Positions 1 to 14,155 of a DNA stretch of 64,000 bases are shown in pieces. Position 1 is the stretch's first letter. Each line of letters opens with the position of its first letter. Below the pieces are notes generated by a model. That model worked only from the letters and a program-made list of their open reading frames with translations, searched no databases and had not been told where the DNA came from. The position numbers were made by a program, and so were the translations under genes. This DNA comes from an uncultured Ruminococcus sp. (GTDB taxonomy: Bacteria > Bacillota > Clostridia > Oscillospirales > Ruminococcaceae), in the NCBI GenBank assembly GCA_947627275.1, contig CANQVK010000014.1, forward strand, positions 666 through 64,665. Reading direction: 5' to 3'.

Positions 1-2
1 TA

Positions 3-1019
3 ACTGCGATAAAAATTCCCGACAGTATAACAAAAATTGGAGATGCAGCTTTTTTCGCTTGTTATGTTTTAAAATCAGTAGAGCTCCCTGACAGTGTTGT
101 TGAAATTGGAGAAGAAGCGTTTGGCTACTGCAAAGAATTAACAAGCGTGAAAATCGGAAGCGGCATTAAGACTATTGATTACGGTGCATTTATATATTGT
201 AAGGCCCTTGCGTCAATTACAATTCCCGACAGCGTTACAAGTATTGAGGCGAATGTTTTCGATCATACAGCATGGTATGACGCTCAGCCGAACGGTTTAT
301 TGTATGTCGGAAATATTTGCTATGAATATAAAGAGGCAATGCCTGATAATACGCAAATTACTATCAAAGAGGGAACAAAGGGGATCGCAGATCAAGCATT
401 TAAAGACTGCGTCGGTTTAACGTCGGTAACTATCCCTGACAGTGTTGAAAATATAGGATACAGTGCATTTTTCGGATGCACCGGCTTAACGTCGGTAACT
501 ATTCCCGAAGAAGTTAAAGTCATTCAGGGACAAGCGTTCAGGAATACAGGATTGAGGACGATAACTCTGCCCAAAAGCGTTGAAAAAATCGGAATGTACG
601 CTTTTTGGGAATGCGGCAGTCTGCGATCTATAACAGTAGAAAATCCAAAGTGTGAATTTGACGACCGAGTATATACCATTCCTGACAGCACGACAGTTTA
701 TGGCTGCATCGGTTCTACGGCTCAGGCTTATGCTAAGAAGTACGGCAAGGATTTTGTGCCTCTGGACGGAGGTTCATATTATTTTGGCGATGTAAACAAC
801 GACGGCAGTATAGATTCAACAGACGCTTCGTTGATACTCAGCGAATACGCTCTCGTTGCAACGACCGGCAAAAGTATTCTTTCGGAGGAGCAGAAGCTTG
901 CCGCTGACGTTAATTTCGATAATATTGTCGATGCAAGCGACGCCTCTTTAATTCTCGGCTACTATTCCTATACGTCAACGGGAGGTACGGAGTCGTTTGA
1001 AACGTTCCTTGCCATATGA
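3..1019 (+). CDS. BspA-type leucine-rich-repeat protein with C-terminal dockerin (5'-partial, runs off window start)
   Basis: Frame is open from position 3 (TAIKIPDSITKIGDAAF...). Repeated LxSVTIPDSVxxIGxxAF units; C-terminal GDVNNDGSIDSTDAS...ADVNFDNIVDASDAS Ca-binding dockerin duplication. Confidence 0.92.
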   Translation, partial: TAIKIPDSITKIGDAAFFACYVLKSVELPDSVVEIGEEAFGYCKELTSVKIGSGIKTIDYGAFIYCKALASITIPDSVTSIEANVFDHTAWYDAQPNGLLYVGNICYEYKEAMPDNTQITIKEGTKGIADQAFKDCVGLTSVTIPDSVENIGYSAFFGCTGLTSVTIPEEVKVIQGQAFRNTGLRTITLPKSVEKIGMYAFWECGSLRSITVENPKCEFDDRVYTIPDSTTVYGCIGSTAQAYAKKYGKDFVPLDGGSYYFGDVNNDGSIDSTDASLILSEYALVATTGKSILSEEQKLAADVNFDNIVDASDASLILGYYSYTSTGGTESFETFLAI

Positions 1020-1042
1020 GAACAGATTATAAAGGTGAGAAT

Positions 1043-1091
1043 AAAAAGTCTGCGTTTCACGTTTTTCGTGATCCGCAGATTTTTATTTTTT
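1043..1091 (+). terminator. Rho-independent terminator after LRR-dockerin gene
   Basis: AAAAAGTCTGCG...CGCAGATTTTT inverted repeat followed by a T-rich tract. Confidence 0.75.
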
Positions 1092-1217
1092 TACAGATCT
1101 AAATTAATTGTGCATAATGGCTGAATTATTATGATTTATTTGTGCAAGTATACGAATTTTTGAAAAGTTTATAATTTTTTCGTCTTTTTTGCCTTTTAAA
1201 ATCACTTGTATATATAA

Positions 1218-1360
1218 GGAATCATAAAGAAATAAGTTATACTCGCCGCTATTGCAAAATGTCCAAAGAATGCTGAACAGAAAATTCGTATGCCAAGGAA
1301 GATGACGCAGACAGATTTTATGTCTGCATTACTGAATATTTTGTAATAGCGGCGAGTGTA
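1218..1360. mobile_element. MITE-like hairpin repeat element, copy A
   Basis: Inverted repeat ACTCGCCGCTATTGCAAAAT (1241-1260) / ATTTTGTAATAGCGGCGAGT (1338-1357); core TATGCCAAGGAAGATGACGCAG; near-copy at 4222-4342; left end matches the terminal repeat of 46629-46740. Confidence 0.6.
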
Positions 1361-1385
1361 TAGTAATCCATGAATGGAGGATGTT

Positions 1386-2489
1386 ATGAAAAAAGAAATT
1401 ATTACAATAATGTCTGCTTTTATTTGTTTTTCTTCTTTTTCCTGCAACGACAAAGATGTTTCATCAAATAAAAACGAGATCGCATTTGCATTTTTAGGTG
1501 GGAGTTGCTATGGTAACGGCATGATACATAGCAGCGATCCAGTGAGATATATAGATTTTAATACTATGGAAAGCAGCGTTCTATGCGCCAAACCGAATTG
1601 TGAACATAAAACATCGGAGTGTGTTGCAAAGCTTGTCGGAGACTGCCCCATTATGTATAATGACTATTTGTATTACTTCACTTCAACTCAAGGCGTTGAA
1701 GAAACAGGAAATGGAAAGCGCGAATACAAGATAAACTCAAAGCTGTGCAGGGTATCTCTTGATTCGTCGGAATCCGAGGATATTGCATATTTCACCGATT
1801 GTAAACCTCGCGACTATGACGGCTGGATGATTATAAATAATACTGTTTGGTTTATCGGAGATAATATGAATCCGACTCCTGACGAATATGGAAATATAGC
1901 GACAAGTAATCAGGGCGGAGAACATTACATTTGCAGTATTGATCTGGAAAGCAAGGAGTACGTTAACTATGGCAGCGTATATGACGGCGATAAGGAATAT
2001 GAGGAAGCCTCATGTACAAGCAGCGCTCAGATAAGAGGATATTATAATTCTAAAATTATGATTCGATATGAGTTCGCAAAAAGCTCTGAAACAAGAGGTC
2101 AGGATTTCAGGCGGAGATTTACGGAGTTAATGTTTGAATTTGATCCACAAACAAAAGAATTAAAAGAAAGCGATCTTCAAATGCCTTCTTATGTTGATGA
2201 GGATACATATGTGTATACGGATTTTGACCAAAACAAGACATATGTTATAGATAATTCAAAAACATATGAAGTAACATGTGATACAGGTCTTGATTCTTTT
2301 GCTGTAAACAATAAACTGTTTGTTTCTGATGAAGATAAATGGTATGATCTGACAGACTTGTCTGAGCATAGCATGGGCGAATATGCAGATTATGGCGTTG
2401 TTGCATTTTATGATAACTCTTATATTTTAAGTGATGGTAATATGAAATTCGTCAAACTCATCGAAGAAGAACTTCTTGCGCTAAAATAA
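1386..2489 (+). CDS. Lipoprotein paralog L1 (CxxPNCxH motif, probable beta-propeller-like)
   Basis: GGAGG RBS at 1376-1380, MKK start, lipobox SFSC, LCAKPNCEHKTSEC, ICSIDL..EY.NYGSVY, C-terminal KLIEEELLALK. Confidence 0.85.
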   Translation: MKKEIITIMSAFICFSSFSCNDKDVSSNKNEIAFAFLGGSCYGNGMIHSSDPVRYIDFNTMESSVLCAKPNCEHKTSECVAKLVGDCPIMYNDYLYYFTSTQGVEETGNGKREYKINSKLCRVSLDSSESEDIAYFTDCKPRDYDGWMIINNTVWFIGDNMNPTPDEYGNIATSNQGGEHYICSIDLESKEYVNYGSVYDGDKEYEEASCTSSAQIRGYYNSKIMIRYEFAKSSETRGQDFRRRFTELMFEFDPQTKELKESDLQMPSYVDEDTYVYTDFDQNKTYVIDNSKTYEVTCDTGLDSFAVNNKLFVSDEDKWYDLTDLSEHSMGEYADYGVVAFYDNSYILSDGNMKFVKLIEEELLALK

Positions 2490-2517
2490 TAAAAATTGAT
2501 ATATTTTTCTATACCTA

Positions 2518-2546
2518 TTGACAATATAACAAATATATGGTATAAT
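2518..2546 (+). promoter_or_regulatory. sigmaA promoter for small secreted gene S1
   Basis: TTGACA-17 nt-TATAAT, exact consensus. Confidence 0.85.
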
Positions 2547-2612
2547 AAAATTTATGAGAAACACGACTTAGGTTAGTTGAATTATAACGCTTAAAAAGCG
2601 GCGGCTTCCGTT

Positions 2613-2939
2613 ATGGCTGTAGCTTCTCTCGCTTCCGTAATGGTCGGCATGAGCTCAAGCGCTTATTACACATCTCGTCCTTTTGGGCATGGCTCAACTG
2701 CTTACAACGCAACATCTATAAACAATGTCTACGCTTCGATGAATACGACTTTGGAAAAAACATACATAAAGGTAGGAGTCACGAAACTGAATGATTATGA
2801 CGTAAACGAATACTTTTCCGGCTCTGTTACGGATCATGTAGAGACAACTGCGTATGAATTAGGCATAAACAAGTCAACTTCTTACCACCAAGAGGGTAAA
2901 CTCGGTTACACTTACACTAATATCACTATGAACGCATAA
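2613..2939 (+). CDS. Small secreted-type protein S1 (signal-peptide n-region lost)
   Basis: MAVASLASVMVGMSSSA hydrophobic/cleavage segment nearly identical to S3; upstream codons homologous to S3 TFKKVVASV are frame-broken; no strong SD. Confidence 0.7.
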   Translation: MAVASLASVMVGMSSSAYYTSRPFGHGSTAYNATSINNVYASMNTTLEKTYIKVGVTKLNDYDVNEYFSGSVTDHVETTAYELGINKSTSYHQEGKLGYTYTNITMNA

Positions 2940-2951
2940 AAAATTATATTG

Positions 2952-3013
2952 TTGACTGGCTGCTGATGATCTGCGGCAACAGAACATGTAAGGGCATCAG
3001 CGGCTGTCAGCAA
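2952..3013 (+). terminator. Stem-loop between S1 and L2
   Basis: GCTGCTGATG / CATCAGCGGC inverted repeat extended by TGAC/GTCA. Confidence 0.55.
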
Positions 3014-3046
3014 TTTTAATTTATAGTATTGCAAAGAGGGGATATA

Positions 3047-4203
3047 ATGAAAAGAAACATATTTATTTTGTCAGTTCTTTTTTTATTTTTGCCATTAGTA
3101 TCATGTGAGGGTAAAAAAGAAAATCCAACTAATGAGTTTAATAATGAAATTATATATATATAGAAAGGTTGAATAACAATTATGGTGACGGCAAAATAAT
3201 AGGCTCATCTCATAAATTATCTGAGAATTATCTTAAATATTTAAAATATCAGGATATGAGTACTGCACCTTTTTGTTCTAAACCAAACTGCACTCATAAA
3301 ACAGATGACTGTTTGGCAAAAGCAGTAGGAAATTGTCCGATACTCACAAAAAACGGCGTATTTTTTTTCAGTGATAAATATGGAGTGGAAGAGAAAAAAG
3401 ATGGAAAAAGAGAATTTGAAATTGATTCCAAATTGTGCAGAGCATCTTTGGATTCTTCTGAAATCGAAACAGTCGCCGAATTTACAGACTGTGTTCCGCG
3501 TGAATATGACGGCTGTATGGTAATAGACGGCGTTTTGTGGTTTACCGGTGATGATATGAATCCCATTACCAATGAATATGGGGCTATTATATCGTCAAAC
3601 GTGGGCGGAACTCATTATTTATGCAGTATTGATCTTAAAACAGGCGAATATACAAATTACGGAAGTGTATATAACGGCGAGAATTACGACAAATCAAGTC
3701 ATGCGTCCATTGTTGGATATTACAACTCAAATCTGTTGATTAATTATGAATACGCAGCATCGCCGGATTATGAAGACCCAAGTGCGCCGTGGTTTGGTTT
3801 GAGCGATTTAATGTTTGAATTTGATCCGAAAACAAAAGAAATGAAGGTTTCCGATATTCCGTCAAGACCGATTTTCTTTGATTTGGAGTCGGAAACATTG
3901 GCTTACTGTGAATATGACGCCAACAAGATAATTGTATTGGCAGATAACAAGAGATATGAACTTAATATGGATATTGCTAAGATTGATGGCGGTATCGCCA
4001 ACTATGCTCCTGTTTATAATAATAAAATCATTATGCTTGGCAGCGGAAAGTGGTATGATATAACAGATCAATCAGAACATTATCTAGGTGAATATGCCGG
4101 TTGGGATTTTGAAGATTACTATGACGGTTGTTACATTTTATCCAACCCAAGAAGAACCAAATACGTCAAACTTACTGAAGAAGAACTTCTTGCGCTAAAA
4201 TAA
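3047..4203 (+). pseudogene. Lipoprotein paralog L2, frameshifted at a (TA)6 tract (possibly phase variable)
   Basis: ATG 3047 gives MKRNIFILSVLFLFLPLVSC (lipobox) and stops at TAG 3161-3163. Removing one TA from 3151-3162 joins it to ORF 3169-4203 (FCSKPNCTHKTDDC; KLTEEELLALK). Confidence 0.85.
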
Positions 4204-4221
4204 TAAAATTCGATAGATATA

Positions 4222-4342
4222 CTAGACGCTATTGAAAAATGCCCAAAGGATGCAGAACAGAAAATCCGTATGTCAAGGAAGATGACGCAGACAGACGGAT
4301 TTTATGTCTGCCTTACTGGATATTTTTCAATAGCGGCGAGTG
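4222..4342. mobile_element. MITE-like hairpin repeat element, copy B (left-truncated copy of A)
   Basis: CGCTATTGAAAAAT / ATTTTTCAATAGCG inverted repeat; core TATGTCAAGGAAGATGACGCAG; colinear with 1241-1360. Confidence 0.6.
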
Positions 4343-4383
4343 TAACATACGATAAAAACGATAATCAAAATTCAGGAGATTTT

Positions 4384-5541
4384 ATGAAAAATAAAATATT
4401 ATTTGCAACTGTTATAGTGGCATTTTTGACGTCAGGATGCGGCGGCAATGATGTAACTTCAAAAGGTAATATTCAGTCGGATAGCGATTTTACTTCTACT
4501 CATTCAGACGACAGCGTTCATAATTGCATTGATGCTCAATATATAGATTCAGGGGAAAATATATATGATAATGGCATGATCTATGGAAGTGACGCTCCCA
4601 AAACCTATTTGGATTTTGAAACAATGGAAAAGACTGTTTTATGCGCATTGCCTAATTGCAATCACTCCACATCTGAATGTATTGCTGCAAAAATTGGCAG
4701 AACTCCTATTATCTTTAATGACTATATTTATTATTTTGATGTTAAAGATGGTGTAAAAGAAAATTCGGATGGCAGAGAATTTTACATAGATTCTCAACTT
4801 AAGAGAGTTTCACTGACAAATTCTGAAATTGAAGACATAGTTCAATTTACAGATTGTGAACCCAGAGAATACGGTGGATGCGTTATTCTTGACGGAATTC
4901 TTTATTTTTGCGGCGATGACATGAATCCTACCAAGGACGAATATGGCGGAATATCTTATGCTAATGGAGGCGGTACTCATTTTTTATGTAGTATTGATCT
5001 TAATACGGGTGAATATGTTAATTATGGAAGTATTTACGATGAAGATAAGCAATATGAAAGCTCGGCTCAGACGAGTACTGCCCATGTAATCGGTTATTAT
5101 AATTCCAAGATTTATATCCAATATAGTTTTATGAAGGAATATATTGACGATCCGAACATTGAAACTCGTGAAAAATTCACGATCCTTAATTTTGAATTTG
5201 ACCCTTTAACAGGAAATTTGTCGCAAAGCGAACTTCTGTCGGGTTCGTTTATGAATGGAAATACCTATGTTTGCAGTAATTATCCTGACAATTCATCAAC
5301 TGTTATAGATGGCGATCAGAAATATACAATCAATGGAGCGGACGCAAAATTTGTTGGGAAATATTTCGACAAAAAGCTATTTGTTTACGATCGTTGGTAT
5401 GATGTTACAGATAAATCGTTGCATTTGCTTGGAGAAGATCGAAAATTTGTAACTATGTATGAGAATTTCTATATTATATCCAACCAATCAGGAACTAGAT
5501 ATGAAAAACTCACCGAAGAAGAACTTCTTGCACTAAAATAA
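4384..5541 (+). CDS. Lipoprotein paralog L3
   Basis: CAGGAG RBS then MKNKILF...LTSGC lipobox; LCALPNCNHSTSEC; KLTEEELLALK. The ORF-track start at 4270 lies inside the repeat element. Confidence 0.85.
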   Translation: MKNKILFATVIVAFLTSGCGGNDVTSKGNIQSDSDFTSTHSDDSVHNCIDAQYIDSGENIYDNGMIYGSDAPKTYLDFETMEKTVLCALPNCNHSTSECIAAKIGRTPIIFNDYIYYFDVKDGVKENSDGREFYIDSQLKRVSLTNSEIEDIVQFTDCEPREYGGCVILDGILYFCGDDMNPTKDEYGGISYANGGGTHFLCSIDLNTGEYVNYGSIYDEDKQYESSAQTSTAHVIGYYNSKIYIQYSFMKEYIDDPNIETREKFTILNFEFDPLTGNLSQSELLSGSFMNGNTYVCSNYPDNSSTVIDGDQKYTINGADAKFVGKYFDKKLFVYDRWYDVTDKSLHLLGEDRKFVTMYENFYIISNQSGTRYEKLTEEELLALK

Positions 5542-5569
5542 TAAAAATTTATATATTTTTCTATATCTA

Positions 5570-5598
5570 TTGACAATATAGAAAATATATGGTATAAT
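5570..5598 (+). promoter_or_regulatory. sigmaA promoter for S2
   Basis: TTGACA-17 nt-TATAAT. Confidence 0.85.
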
Positions 5599-5663
5599 AA
5601 AATTTATGAGGAAACGACTTAGGTTAGCTGAATTATAACGCTTAAAAAGCGGCAGCTTCCGTT

Positions 5664-5996
5664 ATGGCTATTTCAACACTTGTTGTAAGCACAGTTGGAG
5701 TTAACACGAATGCTTATTGGGCAACTGTGTCTTTTGCTAATGATTATGCAACAGCATATAATGCAACAAGTTATAATTCTGTATATGCTTACACTGATTC
5801 AAGTGTTTCAAATACTACAAGAACGGTTTATATTGCAAATGTGAATTATAATGTCAATCCATTGCGTTCTCCTTACTTTAAATCAAGTACTAATGGTAGG
5901 GTTGTAGCCAATTATACTGGCTCAGGATTTAACACCTCTAAAACGGATCATTCTTTAGCAGGCTACGGTAGCCATTCAATTTATATGAATGCTTAA
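5664..5996 (+). CDS. Small secreted-type protein S2 (n-region lost)
   Basis: MAISTLVVSTVGVNTNA signal remnant; shares TAYNATS.N.VYA and C-terminal MNA with S1; same damaged 5' region as S1. Confidence 0.7.
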   Translation: MAISTLVVSTVGVNTNAYWATVSFANDYATAYNATSYNSVYAYTDSSVSNTTRTVYIANVNYNVNPLRSPYFKSSTNGRVVANYTGSGFNTSKTDHSLAGYGSHSIYMNA

Positions 5997-6006
5997 ACGA
6001 AATAAT

Positions 6007-6039
6007 AAGGCTGTTGTTATAAATTGATGCAACAGCCTT
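6007..6039 (+). terminator. Stem-loop between S2 and L4
   Basis: AAGGCTGTTG / CAACAGCCTT perfect 10-bp stem. Confidence 0.65.
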
Positions 6040-6065
6040 TGTTCGTATGAAAGGAAAAGATTATA

Positions 6066-7202
6066 ATGAAAAAAATTGCTTATTATGCAATTGCCATGTT
6101 ATTTGCTTTATCATCATGTAACAGTAAGAATGAAACAAAAAACATTTTAATTGAAAGTAATGATAACATATTCGTTGCAGAGTATGCTGATAATTATAAA
6201 AACGGACGAATTATTGGCGGCAACTCTGAAGGAAACACCGATGCACCGTCAATGTATGTAGATTACAATACTATGGAGAAAACAATTCTTTGTTCTAAAC
6301 CAAATTGTACTCATAAAAATAGCGAGTGTCCGGCAAAGGTTATTGGAACTGCTCCAATACTTACAGAAAATAATATATGTTTTTTTGATTGCAGTTATGG
6401 TGTTGTAGAAAAAAAGAGTGGAAAGAGAGAATTGGAAATAAATTCTAAATTATGTAAATTATCTTTAGATACATCTGAAATAGAGACAATTGTTGAATTT
6501 AATGATTGCGTGCCGGATAATTCAAGAGGCTTTGTTCTTAACGATAATAAAATATATTTTACCGGAGACGATCTTGATCCAACATCGGATGAATACGGAG
6601 GAATTTTTTATTCCAATATAGGCGGAACTCATTATTTATGTAGTATTGATCTTAAAACAGGCGAATATACAAATTACGGAAGTATTTATGACGATGACAA
6701 AAAATTTGAAGGAGCAAAAAGTTCCAGCTCGGCAAGAATATTGGGGATATATGATTCTAAGCTGATTATAAATTATGAATTTAGCAAAACGAACGATGAT
6801 GCGGTCTATGGAAATTTTACTGAACTTGTATTTGAGTTTGATTTTGATTCCAATCAATGGACACTAAGCGATATTCCAAATATGCCAATTTTTGTTGATT
6901 ATGATACTATAGTCTATTATGATAATGATATAGATAGATGTATTATAATTGATAATGGAGAACGTACGGAACTTGATACTGGTAAAGTTACTCTTGCTTC
7001 AATTCAAAATAATAAGCTTTTTATTCGTGATGATTTGAATAATTTTGCTTTAAAATGGTATGACCTTTCGGATATGTCAAAGCATCATGTAAAAGGATAT
7101 GATGGCTATATGCCAGTAAGTATTTACAATGATAGCTACATTCTTACAAGAGGTAATAATACAGCTAAACTCACCGAAGAAGAACTTCTTGCACTAGAAT
7201 AA
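6066..7202 (+). CDS. Lipoprotein paralog L4
   Basis: MKK...ALSSC lipobox; LCSKPNCTHKNSEC; KLTEEELLALE. Confidence 0.85.
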   Translation: MKKIAYYAIAMLFALSSCNSKNETKNILIESNDNIFVAEYADNYKNGRIIGGNSEGNTDAPSMYVDYNTMEKTILCSKPNCTHKNSECPAKVIGTAPILTENNICFFDCSYGVVEKKSGKRELEINSKLCKLSLDTSEIETIVEFNDCVPDNSRGFVLNDNKIYFTGDDLDPTSDEYGGIFYSNIGGTHYLCSIDLKTGEYTNYGSIYDDDKKFEGAKSSSSARILGIYDSKLIINYEFSKTNDDAVYGNFTELVFEFDFDSNQWTLSDIPNMPIFVDYDTIVYYDNDIDRCIIIDNGERTELDTGKVTLASIQNNKLFIRDDLNNFALKWYDLSDMSKHHVKGYDGYMPVSIYNDSYILTRGNNTAKLTEEELLALE

Positions 7203-7230
7203 TAAAAATTGATATATTTTTTTATACCTA

Positions 7231-7259
7231 TTGACAAATTGGAAATAATATGTTATAAT
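7231..7259 (+). promoter_or_regulatory. sigmaA promoter for S3-L5-ABC unit
   Basis: TTGACA-17 nt-TATAAT. Confidence 0.85.
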
Positions 7260-7431
7260 GACATTGACGATAAAAAATATCATAACTCAAACTAATTAAA
7301 TTACAATAATAAGGTTAATTCAAAATTAATTTGTGGTCAGTTTTATTGTATATGGTAGGCTGAACTCAACATTATTTTAAAGGGCATAACATACGATAAA
7401 AACGATAATCAAAATTCAGGAGGTAGTTAAT

Positions 7432-7779
7432 ATGAAAAAAACTTTTAAAAAAGTGGTAGCTTCCGTTATGGCTGTAGCTTCTCTCGCTTCTGTTGTGGTC
7501 GGCATGAGCGCAAGCGCGGCAACTGGATACACTTCAAATCTTTCTGGTGGAACAGGCTCTTTGAGCGTTTCAGACGGTTTTGTATATGCTTCGACAACTT
7601 CAAGTAAAGCACAGTATTTGTACGTTGGAATAACAAGAACCACTCCCGAGGGAAATACTGATAGTGATGGCGGAAAAGGCAGAACCAGTGCTAGTGCAAC
7701 AGTATATGGTGACTATTCTCACGCATGGTCTTTTCATCAGACAGAAACAGGCAGCGATACTTTATCAGTAGGAAGATAA
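7432..7779 (+). CDS. Small secreted protein S3 with intact Sec signal peptide
   Basis: GGAGG RBS; MKKTFKKVVASVMAVASLASVVVGMSASA signal; Ser/Thr/Gly-rich ~86-aa mature part. Confidence 0.85.
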   Translation: MKKTFKKVVASVMAVASLASVVVGMSASAATGYTSNLSGGTGSLSVSDGFVYASTTSSKAQYLYVGITRTTPEGNTDSDGGKGRTSASATVYGDYSHAWSFHQTETGSDTLSVGR

Positions 7780-7790
7780 AATGAACTTAA

Positions 7791-7823
7791 GTGAAACCAT
7801 ACGAGCAATTCGTATGGTTTCGC
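7791..7823 (+). terminator. Stem-loop between S3 and L5
   Basis: GAAACCATACGA / TCGTATGGTTTC perfect stem. Confidence 0.65.
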
Positions 7824-7845
7824 AATATTTATAAGGGGCGTTTAA

Positions 7846-8988
7846 ATGAAATTTTTGATTAAAGCGATACTTGTGCCTGTTTCAATGTTGTTCCTTTTTG
7901 CGTGCGGAAACAACGGTGATACGCTGAATGAGGAAAAAATCCAAACTCAGGGATATGTAAAGGCTGTATGTAATTTATACAATAACGGTCGTATTTATAA
8001 CGATCAAAAAGCCATGTATGTAGATTTTGATACGCTCGAATCCGTTCCCCTCTGCTCTAAACCCAATTGTAATCATACGAGTTCGGACTGCGTTGCAAAT
8101 ATGGTCGGACAATGCCCGATAGTATATAATAACTACGTTTATTATCTGACTTTCAAGCATGGAGTTAATGAAGTCGGAAACGGAAAAAGAGAGTTTTATA
8201 TAAATTCAAAACTTAACCGTGTTTCAATGGAAACATCTGAAATGGAAACTGTTAAAGAGTTTCATGATGGTGTTCCAATTATTGCAGACGGATATTATCT
8301 GAATGGGAATGAACTATATTTTATAAGTACTGATATGGGACCTGACGAAGACGAATACGGAAATATATCTGTATCTGATTTTGGCGGAACACAGTTTTTA
8401 TGCTGCATCAACCTTGATACCGGAGAATACATAAATTATGGAAGTGTTTATGAAGGTGATAAACAATACGAGGGAGCGTCTCATTCGCGTGCCGCTACTA
8501 TAATCGGCGCAAAAGATTCAAAATTATATATTTTTTACAGCTATCGTGAAAAGAATTATTCTGTGGAAGAATTGCAGAAAATGCAGGAATCAGGCGTTGA
8601 TATGCAGGATACTTTTACTGATCTGAATTTCGAGTTTGATATGAATACAAAAACACTGTCCGAAAGTGAGCTTCCAGCACTGTCATATGTGGACTCAGAT
8701 TCGTATGTTTATTATGATCATACAAAAGAAAAAGCAATAGTTTTTTATCGTGGAAATGAATATGAGCTTGATGCTGATACGAGATATAATACATCAGTTA
8801 TCAACGGAAAGTTATTTACGCAGGATACACAGAAATGGTACGAATTAAGCGATATGTCAGAACACGATATGGGAAAGTACGGTAATTTTAAAGCAATAGC
8901 GTATTATGACAACTGCTATATTCTTGCATATGAAAATCAAACCGTCAAACTCACCGAAGAAGAACTTTTGGCGCTTGACAAGGAGTGA
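7846..8988 (+). CDS. Lipoprotein paralog L5 (coupled to ABC ATPase)
   Basis: LFAC lipobox; LCSKPNCNHTSSDC; KLTEEELLALDKE; its 3' end carries the AGGAG RBS of the next gene. Confidence 0.85.
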   Translation: MKFLIKAILVPVSMLFLFACGNNGDTLNEEKIQTQGYVKAVCNLYNNGRIYNDQKAMYVDFDTLESVPLCSKPNCNHTSSDCVANMVGQCPIVYNNYVYYLTFKHGVNEVGNGKREFYINSKLNRVSMETSEMETVKEFHDGVPIIADGYYLNGNELYFISTDMGPDEDEYGNISVSDFGGTQFLCCINLDTGEYINYGSVYEGDKQYEGASHSRAATIIGAKDSKLYIFYSYREKNYSVEELQKMQESGVDMQDTFTDLNFEFDMNTKTLSESELPALSYVDSDSYVYYDHTKEKAIVFYRGNEYELDADTRYNTSVINGKLFTQDTQKWYELSDMSEHDMGKYGNFKAIAYYDNCYILAYENQTVKLTEEELLALDKE

Positions 8989-8993
8989 TGATC

Positions 8994-9734
8994 GTGAATA
9001 AGCTTGGATTGCAGAAGATAAACAAGCACTACGGCAAGAAAAAACATGCGCTATGCGACTTTACATTTGAATTTACCAACGGGATTTACGGACTTCTCGG
9101 ACCGAACGGAGCAGGCAAATCCACGCTTATGAACATTATTACGGATAATCTTCTCCCCGATAAGGACGGCGGAAAAATTTTCTGGAACGGCGAGGAAACG
9201 AGGCTTCTCAAAGATAAATTCCGCAGCCGATTAGGATTTATGCCTCAGCAGCAGAACCTCTATGAGAGCATGACTGCGCGGAAGTTTTTGAACTATATTG
9301 CTGCGCTGAAATGCCTTGATAAAAGGTCGGCTGAAAAGGAGATCTCCGAAATAGTAGAGCGTGTAGAGCTTACCGACAGCATTGACAAAAAAATGGGCGG
9401 ATTTTCGGGCGGAATGAAGCAGAGAGTGCTGATTGCCGCCGCGCTTCTGGGCGACCCCGACCTTATAATCCTTGACGAGCCGACGGCAGGTCTTGATCCG
9501 AAGCAGAGGGTAATAATCCGCAATATGGTTTCGGTTTTGGGCAGGGACAAAATAATCATTATTTCGACGCATATCGTCTCGGACATTGAAACGATAGCAA
9601 AGGAGGTACTTTTCATAAAAGAGGGGCATCTGATAGACAGCGGTACTATGCCCGACCTGACCGAAAAGGTCGAAAGCGGCGATAAGACCCTTGAAAACCT
9701 GTATATGCAGTACTACGGCGAGGTGCAGTCATGA
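8994..9734 (+). CDS. ABC transporter ATP-binding protein
   Basis: Walker A GPNGAGKST, signature FSGGMKQR, Walker B IILDEP, H-loop STH. GTG 8994 is best spaced from the RBS (alternatives 8985/8988). Confidence 0.95.
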   Translation: MNKLGLQKINKHYGKKKHALCDFTFEFTNGIYGLLGPNGAGKSTLMNIITDNLLPDKDGGKIFWNGEETRLLKDKFRSRLGFMPQQQNLYESMTARKFLNYIAALKCLDKRSAEKEISEIVERVELTDSIDKKMGGFSGGMKQRVLIAAALLGDPDLIILDEPTAGLDPKQRVIIRNMVSVLGRDKIIIISTHIVSDIETIAKEVLFIKEGHLIDSGTMPDLTEKVESGDKTLENLYMQYYGEVQS

Positions 9735-11902
9735 GAGTTTTGGCTACAGAACTTAAAAAGCTGCTGAGCAATAAAATTTTCCTGCTGATAATTGCCGCTG
9801 TTTTCGTTCTGAACGGCTATCTTATGTTCAGGACGGCGAACTCGGGCGACGCCAAGCCTGCGGACTACAAAGCCGTTTATGCGGAGCTTGAAGGTCTGAG
9901 CGATACCGAGAAGCTTCAATGGCTCAATGACAGGCTCGGTGAATTTGAGGGGCAGCATTCGTTCAGTTGGACGGTTTTAGGCGAGCTTCGTGATGAAGCC
10001 GCAAATATTGCGGGCTATTCGGACTATCTTGATTCTATAGATTCACAGGCGAGATCAATGACGAGCGTTTCGATTTTTGCAAAGCCCGACACTTTCAACT
10101 ACCGCAGCATTGTGAGAACTCCGCCCGCATATGACAAGGTACGTGACGTTGAGCCGATTTTTGACGTTTCAAAGGGAATCGCCCTTGCAACGGACAACAG
10201 CTTCACGGATATTTTGAGCGGCTTTATTGTGCTGTTTGCTGTTTTGGCGCTGATGATCTCCGACAGAGAGCAGGGAATGTCGGGACTTCTTTTTTCTTTA
10301 AGGCGGGGCCGCAGCTATTTGCTCCTGAGTAAAACAGGCGCGCTTGCAATTGCGATTTTCGGCGCTATATTGCTTATTTATGCCGAGAATCTCATAATAG
10401 CTTCTTGTCTGTACGGTCTGGGCGAGCTGTCAAGACCCGTTCAGTCTCTTAACGGATTTATCGGCTGTAATCTGAAAATAAGCGTTATTGGATATTTGAT
10501 CTTATACGTTCTGTTCAAGTTCATTGCAATGTTTGTGATCGGAGCGTTTCTTTCGCTTATTGCGGTGAATACTAAAAATATCGTATCTTTTTACGGCATA
10601 TCGGCAGTTATCCTGATTGCGGAGGGCGTTGCCTATGCGAAGATACATCCGCTGTCGATATACAGTATTTTCAGATATATCAATCTTATTTCGTTTACAA
10701 AGGTCAACGAGATATTCTGCAATTACAAAAACATAAATTTTTGGGAATATCCCGTTCCGCTGATACCGACTTCTATTGGCGCAGTACTTGTCATCGCTGC
10801 GATATGCGTTGTGTTGTCATCGTATATGTACGCAAAGAAACGTAATCTTGAATTCAGAAAAATCGGATTCAAATTCAGGTTCGGGAAAGGAAATAAAATT
10901 CATTCCAGACTTTATTATACGCTTTACAAGTCGCTCATAATGCAAAAGGGAATATTTATTATCGCCGTTTTTATTGTGGTATCTGTATTTATGGGTGAAG
11001 CCTTTATCAAAAAATACGACCCCATCGACGTCTATTACGAATATTATACGACTGAAACAGAGGGCGAAATTACGCAGGAAACCATTGATTTCTACGACAG
11101 TGAAGCTATCAGGTTCGATGAGCTTAACGCGCGTCTGGAAAATCCCGATATTACCTCTGAGGAGGAAAGAGAAATTTATAAGCAGCTTGCGCCGACAATG
11201 GGATTTTATCCGTCGTATGAACGCCTGAATCAAATCAAGGACATCGAAAACGCGCATATTTTTTACGATACGGGATATAAACGCGCGTTTGGAATAAACG
11301 GTTATGACGATGATATGAAATACGCATTTGCGGCGATACTGCTTTGTCTGTTTCTGATCTCTCCGCTGATAGCCAATGACAATAAATATCGGATGAAATC
11401 GGTTATCAATTCTACAAGCTCAGGCAGAAAAAGTTATATCCGCAGAAATATTTTAACGGCTGCGCTGTATGGATTTGCGGCGTCGCTTCTGTGGATAATT
11501 CCCTATATGGTCACTATTTCCCGATATTACGGACACGGCGGACTTTCGGCTTCGATACGCAGTATCACTGATCTTATAAATTTTCCTCTGAACATCAGCG
11601 TATTGCAGTATATAATTCTTATATGCCTGCTGAGAACAGTTTCCGTACTTTTTACAGCTATGATAATGCTCTGGGTATCTTCGATGTGCAGGAATGTAAT
11701 TTCGGCTGTGCTTATTAATTTCGCCGTATTTGCTCTGCCGATCATAATTTATTTGCTCGGTGCGGAATTTATGGCGAATATCGGATTTAATCCTCTGCTA
11801 AGCGTTAATGTTATGTTAAATGAATTTTCAATTGTGCAGATCATGATACCGCTAATTGGCGTAATTGCAGTTATGATCTGTGAAATTCAAAATAGAAAGT
11901 GA
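9731..11902 (+). CDS. Large ABC-2-like exporter permease with two similar halves and extracellular loops
   Basis: ATGA overlap with the ATPase; many TM segments; repeated motifs SDREQGMSGLLFSLRRGR / NDNKYRMKSVINSTSSGR. Confidence 0.85.
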   Translation: MRVLATELKKLLSNKIFLLIIAAVFVLNGYLMFRTANSGDAKPADYKAVYAELEGLSDTEKLQWLNDRLGEFEGQHSFSWTVLGELRDEAANIAGYSDYLDSIDSQARSMTSVSIFAKPDTFNYRSIVRTPPAYDKVRDVEPIFDVSKGIALATDNSFTDILSGFIVLFAVLALMISDREQGMSGLLFSLRRGRSYLLLSKTGALAIAIFGAILLIYAENLIIASCLYGLGELSRPVQSLNGFIGCNLKISVIGYLILYVLFKFIAMFVIGAFLSLIAVNTKNIVSFYGISAVILIAEGVAYAKIHPLSIYSIFRYINLISFTKVNEIFCNYKNINFWEYPVPLIPTSIGAVLVIAAICVVLSSYMYAKKRNLEFRKIGFKFRFGKGNKIHSRLYYTLYKSLIMQKGIFIIAVFIVVSVFMGEAFIKKYDPIDVYYEYYTTETEGEITQETIDFYDSEAIRFDELNARLENPDITSEEEREIYKQLAPTMGFYPSYERLNQIKDIENAHIFYDTGYKRAFGINGYDDDMKYAFAAILLCLFLISPLIANDNKYRMKSVINSTSSGRKSYIRRNILTAALYGFAASLLWIIPYMVTISRYYGHGGLSASIRSITDLINFPLNISVLQYIILICLLRTVSVLFTAMIMLWVSSMCRNVISAVLINFAVFALPIIIYLLGAEFMANIGFNPLLSVNVMLNEFSIVQIMIPLIGVIAVMICEIQNRK

Positions 11903-11907
11903 GAGAC

Positions 11908-12675
11908 ATGAAGAAAAAAATTATATCAGCAGTGTGTATACTGTTGGCTATGAATTTAATTAGCTGTGGAAGCTGGGCAGATCCATATCCGATAGATTAT
12001 TCGGCAAAGGACAATCTTGCGATAGAGTATATGAATGGAAAATATGGTGAAAATTTTAACATTTCCGTAGGCACGATAAGTGAGCATACATGGGCTCCAA
12101 TGGAAGAACCTTTCAGCGTATATTACTATACAATGGTAAGTCCTGAGGGTGCGGCAGAGGATGAAAAATATTACGTCTATTCCGATGACAACGAAACTCA
12201 TGAAGAGTCATGGATAGTCGGCGATGGCTATATGATGAACATTGTTGAGCCGTATATCAGACAGTTTGTTGAGGAATCTCTGAAAGAACACGCTCCCTGT
12301 GCTGATACGTATTTCATTATATGGGGGGCGGGAAGTGCAGATATTCGTGAACAAACGACATTATTTACAAGCACTTTCTGCTTCAGTCCTGATTTTCCTG
12401 TTATCTCATCATACGATGAGTTTTTAGAGGAAGCGAAAAATGTTTACCTTGATTTGTGTATATTTGTACCTGATTCCGAGCAGAATATTGATTCTGTAGC
12501 TCAGGACTGGCAGGAATGGCGAGAATATATGTATGGTAACTTTAATGAAGGGATAAATCTTTGGTTGGAAACTGTCGAGGACGAGAGCTTTTTCGGGGCG
12601 GATGATACGTTACCGGATAAACACTTGAATTTTAAAACAACACATACAATAAACCTAAAGGATTGGAGAGAATAA
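11908..12675 (+). CDS. Acidic lipoprotein of unknown function (unrelated to L1-L5)
   Basis: MKKKIISAVCILLAMNLISC lipobox; AIEYMNGKYGENF N-terminal motif. Confidence 0.75.
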   Translation: MKKKIISAVCILLAMNLISCGSWADPYPIDYSAKDNLAIEYMNGKYGENFNISVGTISEHTWAPMEEPFSVYYYTMVSPEGAAEDEKYYVYSDDNETHEESWIVGDGYMMNIVEPYIRQFVEESLKEHAPCADTYFIIWGAGSADIREQTTLFTSTFCFSPDFPVISSYDEFLEEAKNVYLDLCIFVPDSEQNIDSVAQDWQEWREYMYGNFNEGINLWLETVEDESFFGADDTLPDKHLNFKTTHTINLKDWRE

Positions 12676-12711
12676 AATGAGCAGAGAAAACAACATTGAT
12701 TTAGATGAAAT

Positions 12712-12807
12712 AATGTTATGTTAAATGAATTTACGCCGGTGCAGATTGCGATCCCTGCATTGGCATTGGTAGGTTTTGCCGTCAGGAAAAAACTTTATAA
12801 ATTATAG
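12712..12807 (+). pseudogene. Orphan alternative C-terminus of the ABC permease
   Basis: 12711-12732 is identical to 11806-11827; reads NVMLNEFTPVQIAIPALALVGFAVRKKLYKL* versus permease NVMLNEFSIVQIMIPLIGVIAVMICEIQNRK*. Confidence 0.8.
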
Positions 12808-12836
12808 TGAACGTAAAAATAAATTTTACGTTCGCT

Positions 12837-12885
12837 ATAGACCTCCTCGGAAATCGGAGAAGCGCTGGATTCCGAGGAGGTCTAT
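12837..12885. terminator. Strong hairpin closing the accessory locus
   Basis: ATAGACCTCCTCGGAA / TTCCGAGGAGGTCTAT 16-bp inverted repeat; a second hairpin lies at 12808-12835. Confidence 0.6.
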
Positions 12886-13003
12886 TGAATTTCCTGCAAA
12901 GCGAAAGCGTCCCCTGCTAAAGTTGACGGTCAAAGCTGGACAAATAAAAAAAAATGTGGTATAATAATTTCTGCAATAAAAAATCAAAGCAGAGGTAAAA
13001 AAT

Positions 13004-14155
13004 ATGAACAAAAAAGAGACAGCAGAGATAAAGAAGAACTTTTCGGATAAAAGCGGATTTTTCATTATGGACAGAGTTCTTACGGGCTTTGTGGACGCAG
13101 AAAAAAACGTCCGCTACTATAAAACGTCGTCGTGTCTGACGATGCCTGTTGAGGAGCATGACGTATACGATGAAACGCTGAAAAAAGTCCTCAACACAAA
13201 CGTGGGAAAGAATTTCTGCGAATATCAGTTTCCAAACGAAGCCTACGAGGAGGGACAGCCGCAGGAGATACTTTACAGTCTGCTCCGTTCTGAGCTTAAG
13301 GACGACATTATCTGCGAGAATTTCATGAATCATATAGCGAACAATTTCAGTCACGAAGGGCCGTATGCGGTCATTACGGCATATTGTACATACACTATCC
13401 GCCGCAAGGACAAAAACGACGAGTTTGCGGAGGGCGAGGACGAGCTTTACCGCTATCTGCTCACAGCGCTCTGTCCCGTGAATACAGGCAGCGACGGCTT
13501 TGTTTTCGACAGCTTCAATAACGAGATAACAAAGAAAGTAAACACCGAACTTATCATCAGCAAAGCGCCCTCCGAGGGATTTTTGTATCCTGTTTTCAGC
13601 AACAGAAGCTCCGATATAAACCATGTAATGTGTTATATGAAGTCCGCCTCAAAGCCGAATATTTCGCTTGTTGAGAACGTTCTGGGCTGTACGTTCGTGA
13701 TGTCTGCGGATAACGAAAAGGCAAGCTTTCAAAATATTCTTAAGGGCGTTGTAGGCGACGATCTGGACTATATGGTCATAAAGACCGTAAATGAAAAGCT
13801 ACAGGAGGTAGTTGAGGAAAATAAGGACGATACGGACAAAACAGTCATTGACAATTCCAAGCTTAAGGGTATTCTTACCGATATAGGGATCCCACAGGAG
13901 CGTGTAGAGATGACGGACCCTGTGTACGAGAAATTCTGCGGAGACGCGCCGCTTACCGTGAGCAATCTTATCGAGACGAAAACGGTGCTGACTTCTCCCG
14001 GAATAACCGTGAATATCAAGCCGTCGGCAGCCGATAAGGTGCGTACAAGCGTGGTAAACGGACGGCGATGTCTGCTTATAGATCTTGACGACCCCACCAT
14101 TGAAATAAACGGTCTGCCTGTCAGACTGGAGGAGAAAAAGGAGGTCATGGCATAG
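13004..14155 (+). CDS. DUF4317 family protein
   Basis: MNKKETAEIKKNF start and FLYPVFSNRSSDINH motif recognised as typical of this Clostridia family; RBS GAGGT. Confidence 0.8.
   Translation: MNKKETAEIKKNFSDKSGFFIMDRVLTGFVDAEKNVRYYKTSSCLTMPVEEHDVYDETLKKVLNTNVGKNFCEYQFPNEAYEEGQPQEILYSLLRSELKDDIICENFMNHIANNFSHEGPYAVITAYCTYTIRRKDKNDEFAEGEDELYRYLLTALCPVNTGSDGFVFDSFNNEITKKVNTELIISKAPSEGFLYPVFSNRSSDINHVMCYMKSASKPNISLVENVLGCTFVMSADNEKASFQNILKGVVGDDLDYMVIKTVNEKLQEVVEENKDDTDKTVIDNSKLKGILTDIGIPQERVEMTDPVYEKFCGDAPLTVSNLIETKTVLTSPGITVNIKPSAADKVRTSVVNGRRCLLIDLDDPTIEINGLPVRLEEKKEVMA

Follow-up and report, generated by a model that had tools for sequence, protein, structure and literature searches.

A short leader lacking the normal start, shared by paralogous S genes of an uncultured Ruminococcus, may be a recently spread null allele

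Results

Organization of the S/B array

The DNA analysed here, called the window below, is a stretch of 64,000 nt of contig CANQVK010000014.1 (assembly GCA_947627275.1) from an uncultured Ruminococcus sp. of the rabbit gut; all coordinates are window positions unless another locus is named. The first 12.7 kb of the window are a tandem array of two kinds of genes, S and B, on the + strand. The S proteins are about 110 aa long, with a mature part of about 85-100 aa, while the B paralogues are about 45% identical to each other and have lipoprotein signals, the motif C..PNC.H....C and the ending KLTEEELLAL. The features of the array are the following (a slash in a peptide marks the cleavage site):

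1374-2489, + strand: B1
2455-2620, + strand: short-form 5' module of S1, comprising the final ~35 nt of B1, the promoter, a leader of 66 nt and ATGGCT
2518-2546, + strand: S1 promoter, TTGACA-17-TATAAT with TG extension, 12/12
2554-2571, + strand: upstream ATG of S1, at the predicted +1, with the 5-codon uORF MRNTT*
2592-2594, + strand: in-frame TAA, 7 codons 5' of the S1 ATG (S2 equivalent at 5643-5645)
2613-2939, + strand: S1 ORF, 108 aa; its first Met corresponds to residue 13 in intact relatives
2941-3022, + strand: hairpin 3' of S1 (-35.6 kcal/mol, z -6.8)
3047-4203, + strand: B2 lipoprotein gene, broken in this strain
4343-4378, + strand: end of a long leader including its SD, joined to the B3 start (36 nt, 100% identical to 7387-7422)
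4384-5541, + strand: B3
5507-5669, + strand: short-form 5' module of S2 (upstream ATG at 5606, TAA at 5643-5645)
5570-5598, + strand: S2 promoter, 12/12, with TG extension
5664-5996, + strand: S2 ORF, 110 aa, without SD; mature domain orthologous to intact genes of loci L020 and L022
6066-7202, + strand: B4, beta-propeller lipoprotein, intact, 3' of S2
7231-7431, + strand: S3 promoter (7231-7259) and long leader, GGAGG at 7419-7423
7432-7779, + strand: S3, whose signal peptide (MKKTFKK...ASA/A) is complete, unlike those of the other S genes in the array
7846-8988, + strand: B5 lipoprotein
8985-9734, + strand: ABC ATPase
9731-11902, + strand: permease, 723 aa
11899-12675, + strand: lipoprotein after the permease

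The block formed by B5, the ABC ATPase, the permease and the last lipoprotein (7846-12675) is the conserved core found 3' of S in relatives, and a strong hairpin stands 3' of every S gene of the array (z from -5 to -6.8). Before B1, an ORF at 147-1019 encodes units resembling leucine-rich repeats and, at its C-terminus, a dockerin-like segment (GDVNNDGSIDSTDASL... DVNFDNIVDASDASL), an architecture typical of cellulosomal Ruminococcus proteins. A MITE-like element of about 125 nt is present at 1238-1360 and at 4218-4344, just upstream of the SDs of B1 and B3; the two copies are 87% identical and have terminal inverted repeats of about 20 nt (ACTCGCCGCTATTGCAAAAT ... ATTTTGTAATAGCGGCGAGT). Its depth in the rabbit-gut runs is about 17 times that of its flanks, which shows that the element is multi-copy.

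None of 21 S proteins matched anything in Pfam, NCBIfam or the PDB sequences, and searches of the sequence families of the same collections with B and with the 723-aa permease were equally without a match. The structure predicted for S (pLDDT 43) is too poor for a fold search. The AlphaFold model of B5 (AF2, pLDDT 88) is a beta-propeller, and the best Foldseek match of the B model is PDB 3s25 (E 7e-7, TM 0.45/0.56), that is EUBREC_1955 of Eubacterium rectale, a 7-bladed beta-propeller-like protein. B differs from it by having only 11% sequence identity and by adding the lipoprotein signal and the C..PNC.H....C motif.

In relatives, genes of the agr type are found directly 5' of the S-B-ABC genes (L043, 435-2619; L047, 5024-7847; L017, 8692-9412; L018, 8582-9181; L022, 291-446). 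They encode a LytTR regulator, a kinase with HATPase_c_5, AgrB and a peptide resembling AgrD that contains ..YQP... In L043, L047, L017 and L018 quorum sensing, lipoprotein and ABC genes thus stand together, as they do in bacteriocin/immunity loci. No agr genes were found within this window. The middle of the long S3 leader (7335-7365, GGTCAGTTTTATTGTATATGGTAGGCTGAA) aligns to L043 2660-2710, with a TATATAAT -10 box and a GGTCAGTTT motif, and may be, from its sequence, a relic of an inner agr-dependent promoter. A literature search covering Ruminococcus, agr and bacteriocins gave nothing specific to the S-B-ABC system.

The missing start of S1 and S2

The start of S3 is a regular one: GGAGG (7419-7423) lies 8 nt 5' of ATG AAA AAA ACT TTT AAA AAA GTG GTA GCT TCC GTT ATG, which begins at 7432. 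The homologous text of S1 is ACGCTTAAAAAGCGGCGGCTTCCGTTATG at 2587-2615, and S2 has the same text at 5638-5666 but with GCA; the strings and coordinates quoted in an earlier, sequence-only reading of this DNA were found correct when we read them again. S1 and S2 lack all three elements of this start, namely GGAGG, ATG and a Lys-rich n-region, and not a single ATG, GTG or TTG is present between the in-frame TAA and the ATG at 2613 or 5664. Compared with intact orthologues, both the start codon and the ribosome-binding site are gone.

What S1 and S2 do have is an upstream ATG (2554 and 5606), at a measured distance of 7 nt past the -10 box, the distance which the sequence-only reading had given approximately for S1 and likened to leaderless mRNAs; the same is true of L051, the locus of a sister strain. 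The uORF that begins there in S2 (MRKRLRLAEL*, 5606-5638) differs in frame and in length from the MRNTT* of S1, hence it is not a conserved peptide. The promoters are in perfect state: the only 12/12 TTGACA-17-TATAAT sites of the region are those of S1, S2 and S3, and all three have the TG extension. S3 pairs with the anti-SD at -11.7 kcal/mol, S1 at -5.0 kcal/mol and S2 at -2.1 kcal/mol, random positions giving -2.2 kcal/mol. The value of S1 comes from a GGCGG, a candidate weak SD, which is placed 8 nt 5' of the ATG in both S1 and L051. As the short leader has neither an SD nor a start at the ancestral position, and as the in-frame TAA closes the frame, translation of S1 and S2 would be possible only from the internal Met. 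The products would begin with MAVASL (S1) and MAISTL (S2), with no K/R ahead of the h-region and hence without the charged n-region of a Sec-type signal peptide. The h-region and an AXA-type cleavage motif are retained (S1 ...VMVGMSSSA/Y, S2 ...STVGVNTNA/Y), aligned to the ASA/A of S3 and of relatives.

The leader RNAs are unremarkable: folding of the short leader gives a z of about 0, the consensus fold of the long leaders contains no structure, and a riboswitch or attenuator in the leaders was rejected. The sole match of an Rfam search of window positions 1-14000 at E<=1, RF01417, is spurious, with 26 bits where the gathering cutoff is 105.

The short leader is the derived state

We searched for relatives with a profile made of the S mature domain only, so that the signal peptide could not bias the result. 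In Ruminococcus and related MAGs, this profile matches S genes at about 17 independent sites (L002, L012, L017, L018, two in L019, four in L020, two in L022, L041-46, two in L047, and L048/49), and at all of them the gene carries AGGAGG and M[KRT][KN]..KK. The n-region has 3-4 K/R in S3 and in 19 of the 21 aligned family members. When 1.8 billion representatives were scanned in full with HMMER, 97 matches were obtained, nearly all aligned from profile position 1. The orthologue of S1, P0006 (63% identical), starts with MKKTFKK; the orthologues of S2 in L020 and L022 (58-61% identical to S2) are intact. Every cassette is intact in the related arrays of L020 (4/4), L019 (2/2), L022 (2/2) and L047 (2/2).

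The long leader of S3 is present in L002 (93% identity) and in L048 (B5 96% identical), which means that this leader is ancestral. Since the relatives carry the long leader or AGGAGG with MKK-type starts, the short form is the derived state. The search for intact orthologues proposed by the sequence-only reading thus bears out its claim that S1 and S2 lost the SD, the start and the charged n-region, relatives with S1-like and S2-like mature domains starting with MKK or MRK; the case that would have spoken against this claim, a short 5' end shared by all relatives as their normal form, does not occur. The sequence is identical across five separate assemblies, so the short form is not an assembly artefact. 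A candidate for a second truncated S1-type gene, P0096, was rejected, as an open in-frame GTG start encodes MNKTIRLAFKK. A pattern scan of JGI metagenomes for the shared signal-peptide DNA returned zero matches.

One lesion, present on several cassettes

The blocks of about 165 nt which contain the lesion in S1 (2455-2620) and S2 (5507-5669) are about 93% identical, while both flanks are only about 50% identical; aligned alone, the two upstream regions have 94% identity over 157 nt (E 9e-65). S1 itself is mosaic, with an h-region (2593-2662) close to that of S3 (7448-7517; 90% identity, E 2e-21), and the h-region of S2 is unrelated. The mature domains of S1 and S2 are about 35% identical, each being closer to orthologues in other species. 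This shows that the cassettes are older than the lesion, which must therefore have passed between S1 and S2 by gene conversion, and it agrees with the suggestion of the sequence-only reading that the two copies acquired the same 5' lesion by conversion or duplication.

A third copy is found in L051, the sister strain, which comes from the same rabbit-gut study (B5 97% and ABC ATPase 98.7% identical in nucleotides). Here the short leader is fused to an S3-type promoter spacer and stands on another cassette type, P0117, which has been inserted after B5 and ahead of the ABC gene. As P0117 of L051 shares the short leader, the allele is on at least three cassette types within the species. The mature domains of P0117, which has the short leader, and of P0004, which has the long one, are related (68% over 72 aa). 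In L048, a close relative which has only the S3-B5 unit, a remnant of 37 codons of a B 3' end (3483-3596, ...FVKLTEEELLALK) is still found ahead of the promoter, so that these two elements appear to travel as one recombination module. Taken together, the sequences speak for a single lesion that was copied by gene conversion or homologous recombination.

For the origin of this lesion, MAFFT favours a single deletion of about 137 nt, from about leader position 50 to codon 4-5. In a colinear alignment free of indels, TTG 2577 (CTG in S2 and L051) is exactly 36 nt before the main ATG, a distance equal to the first 12 codons of S3, and the lesion then reads as ATG>TTG/CTG with AAA>TAA at codon 6. 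There are at least three alignments of similar quality and statistics separate none of them. For the 43 nt between the -10 box and CTTAAAAAG we compared placements in the 5' part of the long leader, in the SD/ATG region and in the mid-leader, and none is favoured (shuffle p 0.06-0.9). The sequence-only reading had described both copies as one A short, which the colinear alignment with TTG 2577 does not require. It had also proposed that removing 24 nt and restoring one A would rejoin the upstream ATG to the frame; the arithmetic works for S1 (35 nt) but fails for S2 (34 nt).

S genes are lost while B genes are kept

In the interval from B2 to B3, a long leader survives as its final 36 nt, SD included, which are joined directly to the start of B3. 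An S gene, of the P0004 type of L002, appears to have been deleted here between similar SD/ATGAAAAATA sequences, and the promoter region 5' of B3 has been replaced by the MITE-like element. Many other loci have B arrays without any S gene.

Two damaged S genes were found elsewhere, both on low-coverage contigs. In L052 (16-60) the SD and the ATG are intact and the n-region reads ATG AAA AAG TTT TTT TAA (A5-G-T7-A5), which produces a frameshift; this frameshifted S is followed by an intact B, and a homopolymer sequencing error is possible. The S1 orthologue of L001 (339-695) has the MKKTFKK start, an in-frame TAG in the signal peptide (translated as Q in the source) and a frameshift near its 3' end.

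In this strain, a (TA)n tract of B2 (3143-3162) is longer by 2 nt near 3151, which breaks the gene into an ORF with the lipoprotein signal (3047-3162) and a body (3169-4203). The run X4 is without the extra 2 nt and has an intact B2 of 385 aa, yet the S1 lesion is present in it. The recurrent loss of S, by different mechanisms, with retention of B resembles the loss of effectors which leaves orphan partner or immunity genes. We infer an effector role for S and a partner role for B.

Discussion

We consider that the short leader of S1 and S2 is probably, with a probability of about 0.55, a recently spread null or strongly hypomorphic allele and not a programmed silent reserve. The allele would have arisen once and been copied between cassettes by way of a conserved module common to all cassettes, in which the B 3' end and the promoter are joined to the sequence that encodes the signal peptide. 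Starting at the internal Met would yield a signal peptide deprived of its Lys-rich n-region, and the production of secreted S would be abolished or strongly cut, a loss of expression which we read from the sequence; the B lipoprotein partner genes 3' of S would stay intact. The array is a fast-rearranging locus, linked to agr in relatives, in which small secreted proteins are encoded first, then lipoproteins and an ABC transporter.

Several observations count against a null allele. The three short-leader ORFs (108, 110 and 117 codons in S1, S2 and L051) are all open. The dN/dS of S2 with respect to its orthologues is 0.17-0.35 and its dN branch is 0.12, to be compared with 0.27 and 0.16, so the gene body has neither the relaxed selection nor the further disabling mutations of a pseudogene. 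The persistence of the allele over several recombination events could mean that it is tolerated or useful. Besides, a strong hairpin separates each S from its B, and the driving of B by the S promoter is only putative. As S2 shows no relaxed selection and as ORFs, promoters, hairpins, h-region and cleavage motif are all kept, the lesion would have to be recent or leaky.

The same facts could be explained if the short-leader genes were functional, their translation beginning at the internal ATG, either with low output or under a different regulation, perhaps with the help of GGCGG or of ribosomes loaded at the 5'-terminal AUG, and giving a product either exported by a 17-residue signal peptide without n-region or kept inside the cell. 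The intact ORFs of S1, S2 and L051, the purifying selection on S2 with a branch that is not accelerated, the retained h-region and AXA motif, the GGCGG of S1 and L051 (8 nt 5' of the ATG, -5.0 kcal/mol) and the presence of the allele on three cassette types in two strains all speak for it. However, the SD of S2 is not above background, the rest of the family has AGGAGG and 3-4 Lys/Arg in the n-region, the uORF differs between S1 and S2, the structure of the leader RNA is unremarkable (z about 0) and the partner B2 is broken in this strain; we therefore hold functional short-leader genes to be rather unlikely. It is also conceivable, though we judge it unlikely, that the short leader is a transferable module giving OFF or low output, strains setting their S repertoire by exchanging modules while the B partners stay on. 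If this were true, it would be a recombinational on/off switch of repertoire in a previously undescribed, agr-linked S-B-ABC system of competition or signalling.

The sequence-only reading had taken S1 and S2 for reserves which recombination with the S3 5' module would reactivate; by restoring SD, ATG and n-region, this would amount to a cassette switch that varies what is secreted. Homology to S3 does flank the lesion (86% over about 100 nt of promoter, 90% over 70 nt of signal-peptide coding sequence), the ORFs are still open, and the exchange of modules in evolution is clear from the hybrid in L051 and from the related mature domains of P0004 and P0117. Nevertheless, the copies supposed to be silent have perfect promoters, every cassette is on in related arrays, and no recombinase or dedicated machinery is present nearby. 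No chimeric joint of the S3 leader with S1 or S2 is present in the assembler contigs of five rabbit-gut runs, which hide rare variants, and the sole direction of transfer observed is the spreading of the null module, never a repair. Hence the claim of reactivation was not supported, and we regard programmed reserves as quite improbable. Least probable, to the point of being very hard to maintain, is phase variation by slippage in the A/T runs of the n-region (A7-C-T4-A6 in S3, A5 in S1 and S2). One alignment does set the A5 of S1/S2 against the A6 of S3, the frameshift of L052 is an independent one made purely of run-length changes (A5-G-T7-A5), and the state of B2 differs between samples by the length of (TA)n; but the tracts are short, at most 7 nt where at least 8 nt would be expected, restoring one A gives S1 and S2 neither an in-frame start nor an SD, and positions 2590-2600 and 5640-5650 are uniform in length in the contigs of all runs.

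Among known systems, the variable bacteriocin/immunity regions with disabled producers and orphan immunity genes, such as pneumococcal blp, are comparable in several respects: a link to quorum sensing (agr-type genes immediately 5' of the unit in L043, L047, L017 and L018), tandem cassettes for small secreted proteins with conserved leaders and variable mature parts, cassettes shuffled from strain to strain, an adjacent ABC transporter, and producers inactivated while the partner genes are retained. The array differs in other respects: S has Sec-type signal peptides whereas blp has double-glycine leaders, the S mature part of about 85-100 aa matches no bacteriocin family, and the partner in the array is a beta-propeller lipoprotein of about 370 aa. 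Lantibiotic self-protection relies on the LanI lipoprotein and the LanFEG ABC transporter, and loci of the lactococcin 972 type combine a Sec-secreted bacteriocin with an ABC transporter that has a large permease. Both recall the order found in the array, a strong promoter and a gene for a secreted peptide, then a hairpin, a surface lipoprotein, an ABC ATPase and a large permease, but the array has no match to the Pfam Lactococcin_972, LanI or LanFEG families and its 723-aa permease is without a Pfam match.

Silent cassettes that act through gene conversion are known from Neisseria pilE/pilS and Borrelia vlsE. The array resembles them in its tandem paralogous cassettes, whose flanks are conserved and whose cores vary, in having two copies without a usable 5' coding end, and in its signs of gene conversion between copies. 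It differs in that its defective copies keep full promoters (12/12), in that every copy is intact in the arrays of relatives, and in that the defective state is a recent derived allele, variation at an expression site being unseen in the contigs.

By itself, the lesion would be an ordinary case of mutational inactivation. If S1 and S2 carry a null allele, as we think probable, this would mean that a null 5' allele can spread sideways among paralogous cassettes by gene conversion, so that a single mutation silences several putative effector genes. The analysis also exposes an uncharacterised system widespread in Ruminococcus, made of S, a beta-propeller lipoprotein and an ABC transporter, often located after agr genes and variable in its cassettes from strain to strain. 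Should S turn out to be an effector and B the immunity factor or receptor paired with it, the loss of S with retention of B would be a record of competition among gut Ruminococcus.
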